Source: an uncultured archaeon
GTDB taxonomy: Archaea > Asgardarchaeota > Thorarchaeia > Thorarchaeales > Thorarchaeaceae
Length of the DNA: 64,000 bases
Direction of reading: 5' to 3'
Assembly (NCBI GenBank): GCA_964473825.1
Contig: CAYYQL010000006.1
Location: forward strand, 8,903 to 72,902
The position numbers and the translations under genes are program-made. The notes beneath the pieces are model-generated. The model did no database searches. It saw only the letters and a program-made list of their open reading frames with translations, and had not been told where the DNA came from. This document shows, in pieces, positions 918-8,182 of the stretch. Position 1 is the stretch's first letter, and each line of letters begins with the position of its first letter.

Positions 918-1919
918 TTGAGCCGTAGAGTACTAATCAGTTACGCAATCAGAGCAATCGGGCTGTTCTTATTCGTCTACATAGTCATGAGTATAGACAT
1001 TCAGCAAATGGTTGCAGTGGCACTTGATTTGGACTTGGTTGTGATCCTCGTGGTGATGTCGATTGTCGCCACTATAGTTATTCTGAGAGGCATAAGGTGG
1101 CAGGTTCTTGGTGAAGAGATGGGATTGAGTTTCACAAGAAGAGAGGCTGTTGATGCGCTCTGTGTGTCTCAAGTGACTGGTCTGGTCCTGCCCGGAGCCC
1201 TTGGGGATCTGATTCGCGTTCCCTATCTTACTTCAAGGGGAAATTCCACGGATGTCGCAACTCTCAGCATTCTTGTAGACGCAATCACAGCATCCGTCAT
1301 TCCCTATTCCGTGGCCATACTTGCCCTCATGCAGATCTTTGAAATCCCTGTCACTGTGAGTTCGCTTCTGATTCCTGTTCTCTGGATTGCAGGACTTTAT
1401 CTAGTGTACAGGATTCTGAAGGCAACATTGTGGCCATGGATAGTAACGGCACGGCTCAGGAAACTGATGACATCCGGAATCACTGGCAACGTTCTCTTCG
1501 ATATACCTACCACAATCCGGTCTATCGGACTGAAGAAGACAGGACTTGCGATAATCCTGGCAGCAAGCTCGTGGTTTCTGTATACGGTACAAGGATACCT
1601 CCTCGCAACTGCCATGGGGTTGAATATAACATGGGACTATCTTGCAATCTCTCTTAGTGTTTCAATAATGCTCACAGCAATTCCCGTTTCGATAGTTGGT
1701 CTGGGAATTCGAGAGGGGACTCTGCTGTTTATGTTTGGACTTGTGGGCATTGAGGCGGTGACCACGGTTGCATTCTCACTTACTCTTCTCGTGACATCTC
1801 TGATTCCTTCCATCGCAGGTATCATCAGCTGGATGAGAGACCCGTTCCTAGATGCGGAGACCCATCCCATGAATCTCTCACTAGGAGCAAGTCCTCCAGT
1901 CAATTGCGAACAAGAGTAA
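918..1919 (+). CDS. Polytopic membrane protein, UPF0104 / lysyl-PG-synthase-TM-like (flippase-like) family
   Basis: 333-aa ORF with a TTG start and about 8 hydrophobic spans. The LRGIRWQVL motif after the second span and GLGIREGTLLF near the C-terminal helices resemble this family. Confidence 0.6.
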   Translation: MSRRVLISYAIRAIGLFLFVYIVMSIDIQQMVAVALDLDLVVILVVMSIVATIVILRGIRWQVLGEEMGLSFTRREAVDALCVSQVTGLVLPGALGDLIRVPYLTSRGNSTDVATLSILVDAITASVIPYSVAILALMQIFEIPVTVSSLLIPVLWIAGLYLVYRILKATLWPWIVTARLRKLMTSGITGNVLFDIPTTIRSIGLKKTGLAIILAASSWFLYTVQGYLLATAMGLNITWDYLAISLSVSIMLTAIPVSIVGLGIREGTLLFMFGLVGIEAVTTVAFSLTLLVTSLIPSIAGIISWMRDPFLDAETHPMNLSLGASPPVNCEQE

Positions 1920-2033
1920 GAGCTGTCATGGCGATAGAGATTGCGAGAAAGCACCTATTTGCTAACGAAGACAGGGCTTCCATAGACAGGAGGTTTCGCC
2001 TTCACGAGATTTCCCGGGAGGTTACTGGAGCAG

Positions 2034-2451
2034 ATGGAAATCCGACCGATGAAGAAGAACGACATTCCTTTCGCGATGAGGCTGACAATCTCAGAGGGCT
2101 GGTCAAGCATTCCACTGGATTTTGGGGGCCTCTTGAGATACGATTCCACTGCAGCATTTGTGCCTGAGAAAAGAAATGAGAGACTTGGCATGGTGAGCGC
2201 AGTCTCATACGGCTCCTTTGGATTCATGGGGAATCTGATTGTGGAGAAGGAGCAAACGGAACAGATGCTTGGGATGTGTCAAATCAAAGCAGTGAGCTAT
2301 AGCGGTAAACATTCTAGATGAAACTGAAAGGCAGCGAGATATGAACAGATTTGTGGTTTCCGAGATTCGTTTAGATGCCTTCGTTGCAGAAGTATCAGGC
2401 CTCTATCAAATTGGCCAGCATACAGCGAACGGGGACACAATTTCAGTATAG
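2034..2451 (+). pseudogene. Decayed GNAT-family N-acetyltransferase
   Basis: The N-terminal part is GNAT-like (MEIRPMKKNDIPFAMRLTISEGW...GMVSAVSYGSFGFMGNLIV). The acetyl-CoA R/Q-x-x-G-x-G/A motif is missing and the frame stops at 2321. A separate short frame at 2341-2451 (MNRFVVSEIRLDAFVAEVSGLYQIGQ...) resembles a GNAT C-terminal strand/helix. Confidence 0.4.
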
Positions 2452-2614
2452 GTGTTTGTGAGAATTAGCAGGAAATAATTGATAGAAGTACTCATGTGGC
2501 TTCCCACGCGAGTACTTCTTCTCGGGTGATTACGTCTTCATGACGTTCTGAAGATGAGTCGCGCGCTTCTGTGGCAGATGCTCTTAGTTGATCAATGTCG
2601 TTATTCAAGGTCAT

Positions 2615-2707
2615 CTACCTGTACAGATACGAGTAGGCAAGCGCCTGTGTTGACACTTCCTTCTTGTCCTTCTTTGGTCCGATTACACAGTCATTGTTGG
2701 TGGTCAA
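2615..2707 (-). CDS. Micro-ORF c of a three-member paralogous small-peptide family (no ATG; TTG or GTG start possible)
   Basis: My translation reads (L)TTNNDCVIGPKKDKKEVSTQALAYSYLYR*. The C-terminal VST-Q-A-L-A-Y-S-Y-L-Y-R matches copies a and b, with synonymous and conservative codon changes. Confidence 0.25.
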   Translation of the reverse strand: MTTNNDCVIGPKKDKKEVSTQALAYSYLYR

Positions 2708-2712
2708 CTCGT

Positions 2713-2811
2713 CTACCTCCGGTATGCAAATGCATAGCCAACAGCCTCAGTTGAAACAGCTATGGCCCTGTTCAGTTTTGCGTCGGACTCGTTTCTTGTG
2801 AAATGTGCCAA
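2713..2811 (-). CDS. Micro-ORF b of the paralogous small-peptide family (TTG start only)
   Basis: My translation reads (L)AHFTRNESDAKLNRAIAVSTEAVGYAFAYRR*. It aligns without gaps over 28 aa with copy a. It lies in frame with copy a, after a TAG-TAG double stop. Confidence 0.25.
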   Translation of the reverse strand: MAHFTRNESDAKLNRAIAVSTEAVGYAFAYRR

Positions 2812-2817
2812 CTGCTA

Positions 2818-2922
2818 CTACCTCCGGTATACATAGGCGTAGGCAACAGCCTCGACCTTCATCATTCGCGAGTCCAGATTCTTTCCAAGTGATTCCTTTC
2901 GGGTGTTCTTTGCTAGTGCCAT
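2818..2922 (-). CDS. Micro-ORF a of the paralogous small-peptide family (34 aa, ATG start)
   Basis: My translation reads MALAKNTRKESLGKNLDSRMMKVEAVAYAYVYRR*. On the minus strand, upstream of this ATG, lie a 7-1-7 palindrome (2941-2955) and a TATA-like TTTATATTGG (within about 2983-2996). Confidence 0.3.
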   Translation of the reverse strand: MALAKNTRKESLGKNLDSRMMKVEAVAYAYVYRR

Positions 2923-3413
2923 TGTTTTTCACCATTTTTAGTTTGTTAAACAAACTATTCTTACGGTATTAGTTGTATACCTTTACCAATATAAAGGTTT
3001 GCCTACCAAACTATCTATGCCCATATTGGTACATATGATGCACCTTAAACAGATTATACATTTATACATTGAACTGAAACTTGAACTGTCTGCAACCACA
3101 CAATCAGTTAGATGATCCAAGCACTCTGTGAGTCATCAGCACTCGTCGTGTGCCAGACTTGAGAGGGACAGAGGTCTCGAATCGCCACGAAATTAAGATA
3201 CTCCAATCAGAACTGTCTAGATCTGCAAAGGAAAGCGGAATCCATTTGGTCTATGGATCATCTTTTTCGCAGAGTGGTTTGTAATTGAGAACCGACACCA
3301 CCTAGGACATGCCGCCTTCCTCGATGCAAGTGAGGAGAGTATTCATACATAGCCGTTCAAGACATGGTTTATCGAATCAACTGCTTGCCGCTATATAGTT
3401 TGATACGCAAACG

Positions 3414-3422
3414 TTTATATTT
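3414..3422 (+). promoter_or_regulatory. TATA-box-like element upstream of the wHTH regulator gene
   Basis: AAACGTTTATATTT lies about 60 nt upstream of the start at 3482. A GGTGA Shine-Dalgarno-like element sits immediately before the ATG. Confidence 0.4.
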
Positions 3423-3481
3423 GGAGCTGCAGACCTATACAGCTGTACAGAAGACTGTTCTGTAGTAGTTCCAGCGGTGAG

Positions 3482-4237
3482 ATGCGAATGAATGAAGAAG
3501 AAATCACCGACTCGTTGAAGAGCGCGGATGAGATTGAGTTCTACGACAGGGGAAAGATCCAGAACGAGCTCATATTTATCACGCAGGATGATAAGATGCA
3601 GGCTCTAGACGACCCTGTTCGGTTAGCCATAGTCACCGTTCTTCGCAAAGGCGTCCCTGACACCCTTACCACGAAGAGAGTAGATGAGGAAACAGGAGAT
3701 ATAATCATACGACAACGCGAAGTGCAGCGTCATGCACTATCAGTAGTTGAAATAGTCAAGATGTCACAGGAGCATCGCGATGTGGAAGAGATAACAAAGA
3801 ACCAAGTCTATCACCATCTCCCAAAGCTTGAAGACGCCGGTCTGGTTGTGAAATATTGCACGGCGAGAACTGGGAAACGGACTACGGACTATTATCGGCG
3901 CACGGCCAAGGGCTTTGTGATTGCTGCCGGCTTTCTATCAGCCGACAAGAAACAGCGAGAAAAGAAGTTGGACTTGCTTGTTGAGAGACTGGACAAGGTT
4001 TTCGGGGTAGAACTCTCCGAGGAGGAGGCCGGCGAAGTGGAGCGCCTCATAAGAGAGGAATGGGAGATTGAAACCAAGGGACGATCCAAAGTGGCAAACA
4101 TGATTTGCGGGGACGTTGTGGACAGCGACGTTCTGGATCTGTACAATTACCTGGTCGACTTGTGGTCCTTAAAGAATGAGCGGCTTCTTGAAATCAAGGA
4201 GAAGCTACGAAGTATAGTCTTCTCTGAAAGCGAGTGA
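3482..4237 (+). CDS. ArsR-like winged-helix transcriptional regulator with a C-terminal coiled-coil region
   Basis: LDDPVRLAIVTVLRKG ... SVVEIVKMS ... ITKNQVYHHLPKLEDAGLVVKY is an ArsR/SmtB-type HTH plus wing. The C-terminal roughly 90 aa are charged and helical. Confidence 0.6.
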   Translation: MRMNEEEITDSLKSADEIEFYDRGKIQNELIFITQDDKMQALDDPVRLAIVTVLRKGVPDTLTTKRVDEETGDIIIRQREVQRHALSVVEIVKMSQEHRDVEEITKNQVYHHLPKLEDAGLVVKYCTARTGKRTTDYYRRTAKGFVIAAGFLSADKKQREKKLDLLVERLDKVFGVELSEEEAGEVERLIREEWEIETKGRSKVANMICGDVVDSDVLDLYNYLVDLWSLKNERLLEIKEKLRSIVFSESE

Positions 4238-4286: not shown

Positions 4287-4523
4287 TCAGCATTCGGCGC
4301 ATATGTTTGTTTCCGTTTCGAGTACTCCCTCAATGGTTCTCAGTTTATCTACGACAAAGTTGCCCATGGCCTCATTACTCTTGAATTCTCCTTTAACAAT
4401 CAAATCATAGGCCCCAAAGAGGATGAAGGCCTCCAAAATTTCATCAAGACTCTTAATCTCATCAAGTATCTCCTTGTTTCGATCAGGCCTGACCTTAAGC
4501 ATGATGTAGGCATGTAGAGACAT
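4287..4523 (-). CDS. Stand-alone Lrp/AsnC ligand-binding (RAM) domain protein
   Basis: The 78-aa product HAYIMLKVRPDRNKEILDEIKSLDEILEAFILFGAYDLIVKGEF...IEGVLETETNI has the typical beta-alpha-beta-beta-alpha-beta RAM pattern. Confidence 0.75.
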   Translation of the reverse strand: MSLHAYIMLKVRPDRNKEILDEIKSLDEILEAFILFGAYDLIVKGEFKSNEAMGNFVVDKLRTIEGVLETETNICAEC

Positions 4524-4599
4524 CTGGTCACACTCTTCTCAAGAATTGGAACAGCATGAGAGGTTCCTCTTTATTACTGTTGCAGTGTCAAGACCGATC

Positions 4600-4971
4600 T
4601 CACATAGAGCCCTTGAGTCCAATGGCGGTCATCTCAAGATCTACGATGGTCAAATCAGGAACCGCGCTTTTATCAACCCACGCGATGACCCATGTGTCAC
4701 CGATGACCCGCGCCATCATCAGGTGCCCGTTCTTATCACCTGCAGTTCCGACATAAAGATGTTCATCGTTTATCACGGCACTGTATTCGGTGTCACCAAG
4801 TGTGATGTTGGATCCGGTTCTCAAGGAGTCATGAATCCGTTCAATCTCGCCTACTAGATTCCAATTGGATGTCTGCCAGATTACCTTTGAGTCGGTACTG
4901 ACTGCAAACGCTTGGAACTTCGGGTTGTTATGGTAGAGAGAGTTCCAAGCCTTGTCGATAGCTGACTCCAA
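4600..4971 (-). CDS. Profilin-like protein (paralogue 1, TTG start)
   Basis: The 123-aa product has N-terminal helix AIDKAWNSLY, then AFAVSTDSKVIWQTSNW, EYSAVINDEHLYVGTAGDKNGHLMMARV, TWVIAWVDKSAVPD and a C-terminal helix ending GLKG. This is the same fold-order pattern as eukaryotic and Asgard profilins. Confidence 0.65.
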   Translation of the reverse strand: MESAIDKAWNSLYHNNPKFQAFAVSTDSKVIWQTSNWNLVGEIERIHDSLRTGSNITLGDTEYSAVINDEHLYVGTAGDKNGHLMMARVIGDTWVIAWVDKSAVPDLTIVDLEMTAIGLKGSM

Positions 4972-5061
4972 GTTTCATCCCCAGTTTCTATTATGTGCAG
5001 TATTGAAGGGAATCGGAAACGAGTTCAACGAGAAGAAATCCAGCCCGAGAATCCCTCGAGA

Positions 5062-5442
5062 CTAGATCTTCCCTTTGAGGGACTTGGCTGCACGATCCAC
5101 GTCGACGTAAATCCCATCAGGTGATGCATTGGGGTCAGCCCATGCAACCACAAACTTCTCGCCCTCAATCTTCGCCAACACAAGGATACCATTCCCAGAG
5201 ACGCTTCGAGCAACCAGGCTGTCTGGCGTTGTCCTGAGTGTGCTATACTTGACTTGGTTCTGAACTACTGATGTGGCATTGTTCTTGACAGCCGAACCTA
5301 GGGCTGTGGCGTCTTCTGCTAGGTCCCAATTGTCACTCTGCCATAACACGTTACCTGATGTCGTTATTACACCGAAGGCCTGAACCATCTCTTTCGAGTC
5401 GTTGTACGCTTGCGTATATGCTTCCATAACTGGATCTGCCAT
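5062..5442 (-). CDS. Profilin-like protein (paralogue 2)
   Basis: The 126-aa product has MEAYTQAY, AFGVITTSGNVLWQSDNW, VKYSTLRTTPDSLVARSVSGNGILVLAKIEGEKFVVAWADPNASPD and AAKSLKG. It is colinear with paralogue 1 and with the profilin consensus (W/Y..Y, KY..R, G.G, C-terminal helix). Confidence 0.7.
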   Translation of the reverse strand: MADPVMEAYTQAYNDSKEMVQAFGVITTSGNVLWQSDNWDLAEDATALGSAVKNNATSVVQNQVKYSTLRTTPDSLVARSVSGNGILVLAKIEGEKFVVAWADPNASPDGIYVDVDRAAKSLKGKI

Positions 5443-5899: not shown

Positions 5900-8182
5900 G
5901 TGCCAGAGCAACCTCGACATGCTTCGGTACAATCTCGTAACTTCCACCTTGGCCATCGAACCCGGAGGCTTCATCGACTGACCGAGAGAACTCAATCTAC
6001 GCTAAGACTGCTTGCAGGACTATATGGAGCCTGCCTCTTCTATGTAGTTCTGGTGATGTTTGAGGGGAGATGGCAAGATCCCGCGATACTCGTGGCACTG
6101 ATGATCAATGTTTTGCTTCTTCTCTCCTCCATTGCTGGACGACATGTCACCAAGAGGAGACTGGCGGCCATCATTGCAGTGATGGGGGGCTATACGGTCG
6201 TTTCTGTAGCAATCGGCAATCTCTCTGAGGTTGTTATCATGACCTCGGGGGGGCTGGCATTGTACGGTGGTATGATGAGTGAGCCGCGGTTCCCCTTGAC
6301 AAGGCGGGCCATGACAACAGGTATTGCTGTCGCAGTCATAATGACGTTTCTGGGGATATACCTAGCCCTAAAAATTGGAGTAGTCTACTTCGTTGGTGCC
6401 GAGATGCTGGGCGCGATAATCCTCAGCGCCAATGGTCGATATACCAAAGAAGAGAATACGGTGGTGGTTGCGATAGCTAATACCTCGGCTATGGTCGCGG
6501 TTGGCGTTCTCATCACGTTTCCAGTAATAGCAATATTCCAGCCCACGATAGCTCCCATACTCATAACCTATCCATTCATTGCGTTTGTCACTGGAACAAG
6601 TGCAACATTCGGTCTCATTCTTCTTCTGCCCTTCCGCGATCGGTTCGAAAATGAAAGATGGCCCCAGGTCAGACCACAAGCTCAGTGTATAATCTCTCTT
6701 GGTGAAGATGCTGAAGCAAGAAAGAACGTGGGAAAAGGGCTAGTCGCTTCAGCCGGTTGGGTAGGGGCAACGAGAGTGGCCGAATATGCAACAGGAGCAA
6801 GTCTGAGCTCACTGCCTCACGCTCTTGGACCAATAGTTCCTGACGCGGCCACAATACCTGATTGGATAGGTGTGTCAAATTCGCCTCTAATTGGAGCCAT
6901 CGGGTTCTTTGTGGGCTGGAAAAGAGCAATTGTTCTCGCCCTCGGAAGCCTCGTTTCGTTCTTGATATGGATGATTCTCGAAGGAGCCGCCCTCATTACA
7001 TTCGGGGCACACTTGAGTAGACCGGAGATTCTGTATCTAGCCCTTGGTGTATTTGCCAGTGTCATTCTAAGTGACGTTCTCGTACGAGGAAGAAAAAGAA
7101 AATCAAGGCAATCAGACAGCGACCAGCTGGCTGAGGAGATGTGTCATGCAGAGCCCATGGGTGATGAAGAGGATAGGCCCTCCCAACTGGCAAGGATTGG
7201 TAGAGTCAGGGAGGAGATGTTCTCGTTAGAGGCCTTCAAGTATGAGATTCGTCAAATGATTCAGAACCCGAAAGAGTATCTGAGAACGCGACGTGGGCAG
7301 CTGCCGCCTTGGATTGCATTTATCTCTCTGGCGCTCTATGCGATAACTGGCATCATGGTGTTTTCTTTACTGAGACCGTTTCCAGCAATCGAGATTCACT
7401 GGCTGCTGTTCATTCTCGGAACTCCACTAGCAATGATTTCAGCCTACTTCACTGCACGAGCAATCAGTGAGACTGGCATGCTCGCGGGATATATTTCAGA
7501 TGCCGTGGCAATTCCGGCCGTCTTGTTCTTCAGGGCCTCATTTCAAGCGATCACCACCTTCATGTCCATGCTTGGAGCACTCCAAGATGCAGCGATTGCA
7601 TTGCTTGCTCAGTTGAAACTGGGTAGAATGACTGGGGTCAGAGGAAGAGACATATTCAAAGCAGTTGCCATCGGCGTGACAGTGGGGACGTTTGTAGGAT
7701 CGCTGATAACCTACATGATATACATCACATATGGTTTCGGTACAGCTGATTTTCCAAGTCCTGCAGCCCAGCTATTCGGTTTCTTGATAATTGGTCTAAG
7801 GGGAATAGGAGAATTCCAGATGCCCGGACTCGATGAATTCCCAACATTACACCCTGCAATTGGACTTGCATATCTCCTGGGCTTCGGTGTGTTGGGTTTT
7901 CTCTTGGGACGCGAAGTGAACAAGCGAGAGATGAGTGCAATGAGTCTTGCAGTGGGCTTACTCATTCCGCCAGCAACATCAGTCACAATATTGATTGGTG
8001 GTCTTATAGATTACCGCCTCAAGAAAATGAGGGACAGAATCCCCGAAAGTGATCAGGATAGACAATCCCGTCATGAGGGGACACGAGAGAGAGATAGCAG
8101 ACTCCTCAGTGGTGTTCTCGCAGGAGAAGCAATTGTAACAGTTATCTGGGTCTTCTGGAGTGCCATTGCTCTATTGTTCTAG
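5900..8182 (+). CDS. OPT-family oligopeptide transporter-like membrane protein (start uncertain)
   Basis: 760-aa polytopic ORF. LTRRAMTTGIAVAVIMTFLGIYLALKIGVVYFVGAEMLGAIIL resembles the N-terminal OPT signature (LT.RA..G......YL.LK.G). It has a central charged loop and a second TM bundle. The GTG at 5900 may be upstream of the real start. Confidence 0.6.
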   Translation: MPEQPRHASVQSRNFHLGHRTRRLHRLTERTQSTLRLLAGLYGACLFYVVLVMFEGRWQDPAILVALMINVLLLLSSIAGRHVTKRRLAAIIAVMGGYTVVSVAIGNLSEVVIMTSGGLALYGGMMSEPRFPLTRRAMTTGIAVAVIMTFLGIYLALKIGVVYFVGAEMLGAIILSANGRYTKEENTVVVAIANTSAMVAVGVLITFPVIAIFQPTIAPILITYPFIAFVTGTSATFGLILLLPFRDRFENERWPQVRPQAQCIISLGEDAEARKNVGKGLVASAGWVGATRVAEYATGASLSSLPHALGPIVPDAATIPDWIGVSNSPLIGAIGFFVGWKRAIVLALGSLVSFLIWMILEGAALITFGAHLSRPEILYLALGVFASVILSDVLVRGRKRKSRQSDSDQLAEEMCHAEPMGDEEDRPSQLARIGRVREEMFSLEAFKYEIRQMIQNPKEYLRTRRGQLPPWIAFISLALYAITGIMVFSLLRPFPAIEIHWLLFILGTPLAMISAYFTARAISETGMLAGYISDAVAIPAVLFFRASFQAITTFMSMLGALQDAAIALLAQLKLGRMTGVRGRDIFKAVAIGVTVGTFVGSLITYMIYITYGFGTADFPSPAAQLFGFLIIGLRGIGEFQMPGLDEFPTLHPAIGLAYLLGFGVLGFLLGREVNKREMSAMSLAVGLLIPPATSVTILIGGLIDYRLKKMRDRIPESDQDRQSRHEGTRERDSRLLSGVLAGEAIVTVIWVFWSAIALLF

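Follow-up and report, generated by a model that had tools for sequence, protein, structure and literature searches.

What is encoded by three short, closely similar reading frames that follow one another in an archaeal intergenic region and end in the same tyrosine-containing motif? The question arises in a 64,000-nucleotide (nt) stretch of DNA, referred to here as the window, from an uncultured archaeon of the family Thorarchaeaceae (GenBank assembly GCA_964473825.1), which corresponds to positions 8903-72902 of contig C6 in an assembly of 3.27 Mb, 103 contigs, 49% GC and 95.7% completeness. The initial annotation described three paralogous micro-open reading frames (ORFs) on the minus strand (copies a, b and c), followed by a fourth, acidic one, and read them as a small-peptide gene family. 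All four ORFs, their quoted C-termini and the stops at 2818, 2713 and 2615 were reproduced to the base from the sequence and the ORF list, and the stop of copy c was confirmed to abut the ATG of the fourth ORF (TAGATG); the spacing of the units, given as about 100 nt, was measured at 101 and 105 nt start-to-start for the repeat core. These ORFs form a single cassette, composed in the window of one cistron A (copy a), two B-like cistrons (copies b and c) and one cistron C. The cassette is probably a stand-alone micro-protein operon specific to Thorarchaeota, which, judging from its composition and architecture, would serve as a regulated, charge-balanced intracellular module of basic and acidic peptides with an effector or regulatory role.

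Distribution of the cassette and constraint on the basic peptides

A six-frame regular-expression search of the 3.27-Mb genome for the Tyr motif followed by a stop gave four matches, three in the window locus and one in a paralogous cassette on another contig, a recurrence in the window locus that is well beyond chance. A genome search with two C-terminal motifs retrieved three further cassettes in the same genome, on contigs C36, C2 and C30, all with the same part order. Peptide A of the host genome has 33-37 amino acids (aa), is basic and starts with M-A-L-[AT], peptide B is a basic paralogue of A with 27-32 aa that usually ends in Y-F-R-R, and peptide C is acidic, Ser/Asp-rich and 30-40 aa long, usually ending in E-V-L-A-L-E-A-T. 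Common to A and B are an N-terminal M-A-L-A and the C-terminal motif S-T-x-A-[LIV]-x-x-A-[YF]. In the window, cistron A has the M-A-L-A N-terminus and the C-terminal helix motif, ends in Y-R-R-stop, and matches a profile hidden Markov model (HMM) of the A/B peptides with E=5.7e-12.

The initial annotation had proposed searching related Asgard metagenome-assembled genomes (MAGs) with such a model, and the result was in its favor. A nine-peptide HMM found matches in all 24 genomes examined of the same GTDB family (16 genera; 1-12 matches per genome, in open frames of ~35 aa), and two chance-level matches only (E about 0.3 and 0.8) in 16 other Asgard genomes. For the same family (Thorarchaeota), 71 of 76 genomes were matched by an A/B model built from 41 sequences, which gave no match in the 224 genomes that represented 29 other Asgard families. 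A search of 1.84 billion representative proteins yielded only 53 A/B matches, almost all of them 29-37 aa long and stand-alone; those with names were called 'hypothetical protein', some of them from Candidatus Thorarchaeota. Pfam returned nothing for all cassette peptides except one chance-level match to crescentin, and in the ESM Atlas A had no usable match, while C matched nothing but unnamed clusters below the threshold. Within one genome, cassettes at different loci may be nearly identical in peptides and promoter (L032-L035 in genome G024, L037-L040 in genome G010), whereas orthologues from other genera differ far more, which suggests gene conversion or recent spread within the genome.

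With regard to the level at which A and B are constrained, the conserved columns of the family showed entropies of 0.8, 0.7 and 1.45 bits at codon positions 1, 2 and 3, respectively. Ala, Thr and Tyr are written there with all their synonymous codons, and the conserved Ser with both TCN and AGY. Such free third positions and the two kinds of Ser codon point to selection on the peptide rather than on a DNA site, as the initial annotation had proposed from the codon differences among the three copies. Its test of frame conservation, under which frame-breaking indels and stops within the motif would count against the peptide, also supported the gene-family reading: comparison of the window locus with its same-genus orthologue revealed no indels in 420 coding nt and 14 gapped positions in 159 flanking nt, and in homologous loci of 16 genera the frames stay open for ~35 codons, no internal stop interrupting those that were listed. 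On this comparative evidence, A and B are taken to be a small-peptide gene family under amino acid-level selection and not a DNA-level repeat.

Signals nested within the coding sequences

The ends of the basic cistrons appear to carry a second type of information. Upstream cistrons end in codons such as CGG AGG TAG, AGG TGA or AGG AGA TAG, which spell the Shine-Dalgarno (SD) sequence of the next cistron, and an exact SD match of at least 6 nt, located 5-9 nt upstream, was found at 18 of 20 B starts compared with 0.9% of random positions; the first cistron has weak SD matches only. Since the host's own 16S 3' end is unassembled, the anti-SD sequence was read in relatives, and CCUCC was seen at this end in two family members. 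These features indicate that the cistrons are translationally coupled via Arg-(Arg)-stop SD sites, and the weak matches before the first cistron fit its being read from a short leader, or without a leader, in most loci. The double role of the Arg-Arg-stop end as an SD site explains both its conservation and the translation of copies b and c without an ATG. Hence, the conserved C-terminal motif holds as a peptide motif, as first described, with the correction that its R-R-stop portion does not reflect the peptide alone. Similarly, only copy a has an ATG, as was originally noted, but copies b and c are not start-less, since each has a TTG 7-8 nt after GGAGGT and these TTGs are kept in the same-genus orthologue.

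Two other ways of reading the A-b region were rejected. Stop read-through, giving one longer protein across A, TAG-TAG and the in-frame copy b, does not agree with other loci, where frames differ between cistrons, each cistron opens with an ATG of its own behind its own SD, and stop codons of all three types occur. A 68-aa ORF in an alternative frame (2747-2953, minus strand), overlapping A and b, is probably spurious: in the same-genus orthologue an ACG stands in place of its internal ATG (2933-2935), and other loci do not keep its frame. Tandem Repeats Finder did not detect the cassette repeat. In addition, a relative's 16S 3' end (L087:1470-1525, genome G237) was recognisable by eye, although Rfam at its gathering threshold reports no small-subunit rRNA in that 3-kb piece; this rRNA gene may be interrupted or unusual.

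Of the 44 loci examined, 23 contain a C-type ORF, and some of these ORFs have been called 'hypothetical protein' in Thorarchaeota MAGs. In each of the 23 loci, 21-39 further codons are open just after the B stop, usually from an ATG a few bases past an AGGAG-type SD site, and over these 702 codons 44 stops occur in one of the remaining frames and 70 in the other. Because of this open frame with its SD-like site, set against stop-laden alternatives, C is probably translated. The last eight codons of C and its stop lie inside a 12-bp stem with a GAAG loop, the 3' arm of which includes TGA and the next four bases. This hairpin was present in 23 of 23 C-bearing loci (-14 to -24 kcal/mol; -24.5 kcal/mol and z = -4.2 by RNA folding for the window copy). 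In an alignment of 21 sequences, 90.5% of cells were paired, compared with 20-46% in slid controls; four pairs showed compensatory changes (e.g., G-C to A-U), and the covariation score exceeded that of 500 out of 500 shuffles. The fourth, acidic ORF of the initial annotation was thus found again and is kept in relatives, but its conserved end is also an RNA hairpin, which corrects the earlier reading.

A T5+ run was found within 30 nt downstream of the hairpin in 16 of the 23 loci, but not at the window copy. The stable, covarying 12-bp stem-loop is reminiscent of hairpin-plus-T-tract terminators, and a scan for bacterial-type terminators did not call the window hairpin. The hairpin would be expected to end or stabilise the transcript. 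A search for the exact terminal-hairpin pattern in one genome from each of ~185,000 species yielded 21 stretches, most of which are labelled Thorarchaeota; several of these genomes are members of the same family according to the nine-peptide HMM survey, and one, labelled Hermodarchaeota, was not placed. In the latter (Candidatus Hermodarchaeota DZ1M.409; L070:7825-7950, plus strand), the ORF with the hairpin pattern ends in V-L-A-L-E-A-T and its upstream part looks unlike other C peptides. No match to the exact pattern was found in viral contigs.

Several observations weigh against the favored reading of the cassette as a three-peptide operon. The middles of A and B are variable, with within-genus substitutions spread over all codon positions, which places the constraint on the termini of A and B. 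In 21 of the 44 loci, no C was recognisable, and C is therefore not obligatory; one cassette of the host genome has an acidic third ORF with neither the conserved end nor the hairpin. Third-position entropy in the C motif is low (0.82 bits), which suggests that the C end is conserved as RNA, at least in part and perhaps entirely. Finally, the window hairpin has no downstream T5 tract.

Alternatively, the repeats could be protein-binding DNA or structured RNA and the ORFs incidental. For the C end, an RNA hairpin with constrained third positions has been demonstrated, and the Arg-Arg-stop ends are constrained as nucleotides because they are SD sites. However, third positions are nearly saturated at the conserved residues of A and B, where Ser switches between TCN and AGY, and 16 genera agree in their reading frames, in ORF length and in the geometry of start codon and SD. 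Rfam, searched at a permissive threshold over window positions 1800-3600, gave chance-level matches only, all outside the cassette. A purely non-coding element is strongly disfavored and retains hardly any probability. The parts of the window locus, read as a micro-protein operon with its regulatory sites, are listed in Table 1.

Table 1. Positions of the cassette, its nested signals and its regulatory region in the window
Feature	Position	Strand	Description
Cistron A	2818-2922	-	ATG start, 34 aa, basic; GGTGA 7 nt 5' of ATG
Cistron B1 (copy b)	2713-2811	-	TTG start, 32 aa, basic paralogue of A; frame and TTG kept in same-genus orthologue
Cistron B2 (copy c)	2615-2707	-	TTG start, 30 aa, basic paralogue; kept in same-genus orthologue
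Cistron C	2492-2614	-	ATG start, 40 aa, acidic, rich in Ser/Asp/Glu, ends E-V-L-A-W-E-A-T
GGAGGT Shine-Dalgarno site for copy b	2820-2825	-	Arg-Arg-stop codons of A; 8 nt 5' of TTG
GGAGGT Shine-Dalgarno site for copy c	2715-2720	-	Arg-Arg-stop codons of B1; 7 nt 5' of TTG
Hairpin spanning the C stop codon	2484-2519	-	Arms 2504-2519 and 2484-2499, GAAG loop; probable transcript 3' end
Operator O1, GTTTG-N5-CAAAC	2997-3011		Directly upstream of the cassette TATA box
TATA-like box of the cassette promoter	2988-2995	-	TTTATATT on the minus strand, ~70 nt before the first ATG; read from the sequence; kept in same-genus orthologue
Operator O2, GTTTG-N5-CAAAC (the 7-1-7 palindrome)	2941-2955		In the predicted 5' leader; one change in same-genus orthologue
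Operator O3, GTTTG-N5-CAAAC	3398-3412		Directly upstream of the TATA box (3414-3422) of the winged-helix gene
251-aa winged-helix gene (HTH_20/PadR-like by Pfam)	3482-4237	+	Divergent from the cassette; candidate regulator of the cassette and itself

Gene neighborhood and regulation

The genomic context was analyzed by clustering the ORFs that flank 44 loci of the host genome and 12 relatives over ~7 kb, with the identities of neighbors taken from Pfam. Cassette positions were syntenic across genera and included three arrangements: ~100 nt downstream of a PolX polymerase gene (group I, 10 loci), divergent from the 251-aa winged helix-turn-helix (wHTH) gene at a distance of 105-558 nt (group II, nine loci, including the window), and downstream of ribosomal protein S7 (group III, six loci). 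No neighbor family was common to different synteny groups, no transporter or immunity family recurred beside the 44 cassettes, and neither a regulator nor a transporter adjoins the cassettes of groups I and III. The lack of a common neighbor indicates that the cassette is self-contained, vertically inherited rather than mobile, and free of any linked maturase, exporter or immunity gene. Downstream neighbors differ between locus types and are often convergent; unlike leader-peptide attenuators, the cassette has no regulated downstream gene on the same strand. In the host's genus, the PolX-downstream cassette (on the host's own contig C30, L003:10051-10143, plus strand, as well as in L005 and L006) has a third ORF that is acidic and Ser-rich, without the E-V-L-A-L-E-A-T end or the hairpin. 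About 150 nt beyond the C30 ORF, on the opposite strand, a tRNA-like gene with an insertion was noticed, by eye only.

This context bears on the suggestion, also made in the initial annotation, that the ORFs encode precursors of peptides that are made on ribosomes and then modified post-translationally (RiPPs), or of a peptide-derived cofactor, with the Tyr-rich C-terminus as the core, a remote maturase and the copies as sacrificial substrate. The many short tandem paralogues with a conserved aromatic motif would fit such a role, and their scattering over the genome recalls dispersed precursor families such as the prochlorosin procA genes or multi-copy pqqA. Modifying enzymes were looked for accordingly. 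Two radical-SAM/SPASM proteins are encoded in the host genome, but on contigs other than those bearing cassettes; no YcaO was found in this 95.7% complete genome, and no enzyme family recurs beside cassettes of different synteny groups. In A and B, the first 4-8 and the last ~12 residues are conserved and the middle is variable, which is neither a classic leader-core layout, to which it looks rather opposite, nor a clear follower. The Glu of a PQQ-like E-x-x-x-Y pair is not conserved in A/B, and, unlike the known precursor families, the cassette has an acidic third cistron and a hairpin as integral parts. Gene context therefore gave the precursor option no support, and it is considered distinctly unlikely.

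Compared with the coding middles, the promoters were conserved more strongly. Most cassettes, including three of the four in the host genome, have a promoter of ~90 nt that is nearly invariant across genera (class 1), in which a 15-bp palindrome (GTCACAAATTGTGAC) is accompanied by two more GTGAC/GTGGC repeats and by a TATA box, with ~32 nt left to the ATG. When at most one mismatch is allowed, the palindrome has five sites in the host genome, of which three are at cassettes, one precedes a bactofilin-domain gene and one precedes a 476-aa wHTH gene. The bactofilin site (own contig C9:32045; L064:3046-3060) and a TATA box lie before a gene of 428 aa (L064:3101-4387, plus strand) that follows a 104-aa HTH_45 winged-helix gene (L064:2715-3029, plus strand), and this HTH_45/palindrome/bactofilin arrangement is kept in two other genera (L097 and L103). 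Occurrence of the same palindrome at cassettes and at the bactofilin gene suggests a regulon common to the micro-peptide cassettes and a bactofilin-like protein, for which the HTH_45 protein is a candidate regulator. The fifth site (own contig C63:5948; L065:3449-3463) has one mismatch and is located between two wHTH genes, of 476 aa (HTH_24/MarR_2) and 350 aa (MarR-like), and either of their products could be the class-1 regulator.

In the window locus, the initial annotation had placed a 7-1-7 palindrome and a TATA-like element upstream of copy a, both of which were confirmed, in what it considered an otherwise empty island; this intergenic region, however, also holds two promoters and three operator sites. 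The operator GTTTG-N5-CAAAC occurs exactly three times in the 3.27-Mb genome, always in this region, and one to three such sites (with at most one mismatch) were found in the group II loci of relatives. Since the wHTH promoter repeats the operator-TATA layout of the cassette and the operators are common to both promoters, the wHTH protein would be predicted to bind the three sites and to control the cassette as well as itself.

A small-peptide gene that diverges from its own transcription factor, with palindromic operators in between and an oligopeptide (OPT) transporter nearby, is also characteristic of Rgg/SHP and other RRNPP pairs. By analogy, a cassette peptide might be exported, re-imported by the OPT transporter (window 5900-8182) and sensed by the divergent wHTH protein. 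The operators that are unique in the genome and common to both promoters agree with such signalling, as does the synteny of the OPT transporter in eight group II loci, which may reflect vertical inheritance only. However, the likeness is limited to the synteny group of the window (nine loci, three genome-unique operators), and most cassettes, i.e., those of groups I and III, have no regulator or transporter beside them. In addition, Pfam matches of the 251-aa protein are limited to HTH_20, PadR and HTH_5, with neither a TPR nor an Rgg-type peptide-binding domain among them; signal, hydrophobic segment and other export features are missing from the peptides; and the cassette consists of three or four cistrons. 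Peptide signalling of this type is thus very improbable, and the favored reading remains that of an intracellular module under wHTH control.

Predicted properties of the peptides and comparison with known systems

All three peptide classes are hydrophilic (median grand average of hydropathy about -0.75; -0.75 to -0.79), with median charges of +3.6 for A, +4.6 for B and -3.5 for C. AlphaFold2 models of A and C, built with family alignments, reached a moderate overall confidence of about 68. For A, a helix was predicted over residues 8-33, with a mean predicted local distance difference test (pLDDT) value of 84 for residues 21-30 and 76 for residues 31-34, and for C a short helix over the conserved end (mean pLDDT 80 for residues 31-40). 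Prediction of an A+B+C complex with alignments returned a score of 0.03, which gives no verdict and is evidence neither way. A possible function of the C-termini as HbYX motifs that open the proteasome gate was rejected: 5 of 83 distinct A/B termini fit the motif and 53 have a penultimate Arg.

Taken together with the coupled cistrons and the putative operators, these properties are consistent with a module in which A, B and C are made inside the cell in fixed proportion, each as one short amphipathic C-terminal helix with a charged disordered tail (about +4, +5 and -4, respectively). Jointly, the three peptides would constitute a small intracellular unit, balanced in charge and switched on by dedicated transcription factors, with an effector or regulatory role; they would be neither exported nor enzymatically matured. 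In its most complete form, this reading describes a lineage-defining, multi-copy Thorarchaeota system of two basic peptides and one acidic peptide in fixed ratio, a new intracellular charge-balanced effector that dedicated transcription factors switch, that is regulated together with a bactofilin-domain protein and that is dual-coded with SD sites and a hairpin. This complete form is put forward tentatively, the chances being against all of its parts holding together.

Opposite net charges of A/B and C would also be expected in a micro toxin-antitoxin-like module, in which basic A and B are harmful (e.g., by binding nucleic acids or ribosomes), the acidic and disordered C, translated last, neutralises them, and the copies correspond to the multi-copy small-toxin loci of bacteria. 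Through translational coupling the peptides are made in a set ratio, several cassettes with conserved RNA elements are found per genome, and palindromic operators are typical of autoregulated toxin-antitoxin operons. Nevertheless, approximately half of the loci have no recognisable C, and the loci are core and syntenic across 16 genera rather than patchy or mobile. No DNA-binding fold is possible in such peptides, and the regulator is a separate wHTH gene. Type I toxins (hok/sok, ldr/rdl and ibs/sib) are single hydrophobic membrane peptides under antisense-RNA control. Their loci are similar to the cassette in having several chromosomal copies, ORFs of 20-50 codons, conserved RNA hairpins and coupled short ORFs, but the cassette encodes three hydrophilic peptides without a membrane segment and has dedicated DNA operators and a protein regulator. 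A toxin-antitoxin function is therefore regarded as unlikely, and the charge-balanced module is preferred.

Leaderless multi-peptide bacteriocin operons (such as aureocin A70, aurABCD, and enterocin L50A/B) encode hydrophobic or amphipathic membrane-active peptides together with adjacent exporter and immunity genes, and are accessory and often plasmid-borne. Like the cassette, they have paralogous genes in tandem that are co-transcribed and encode cationic peptides (30-45 aa) lacking an N-terminal leader; in the cassette, A (~34 aa) and B (~28 aa) are SD-coupled. In contrast, the cassette peptides are hydrophilic and have an acidic partner, no exporter or immunity gene is adjacent, and the loci belong to the core of one archaeal family, where they are syntenic. 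No description of the cassette family was found in the searchable literature on small proteins and RiPPs of Thorarchaeota or Asgard archaea. Because at least one defining feature of each system compared is not found in the cassette and no description was found, the cassette appears to be a new kind of small-protein system that is restricted to one Asgard family and matches no described system.

Archaeal annotation routinely overlooks small proteins, of which only very few are understood. Here, a whole operon of micro-genes is conserved in nearly every sampled genome of one Asgard family, at several syntenic positions, a degree of conservation that implies an important lineage-specific function described by no database family. 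For the window copy, the only recognisable genomic targets of the candidate regulator are the cassette and the regulator gene itself. The locus also provides a clean example of overlapping constraints, in which peptide sequence coincides with a ribosome-binding site on the one hand and with an RNA hairpin on the other. No Thorarchaeota culture is available, but the three peptides, which are short, the wHTH protein and the 15-bp operator are testable parts of the locus that can be studied in vitro or in a model archaeon.

Several other genes surround the window cassette. A 95-aa ORF (window 2034-2321, plus strand) that has no Pfam match lies between the cassette and an LPG-synthase-like gene. 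Beyond the wHTH gene, two tandem profilin-like genes (window 4287-5442, minus strand) were observed, one with a weak Pfam Profilin match (E = 0.001) and the other with none, followed by a stand-alone gene for an Lrp/AsnC ligand-binding domain. The profilin-like genes and the Lrp/AsnC gene are all syntenic with the cassette in group II loci.

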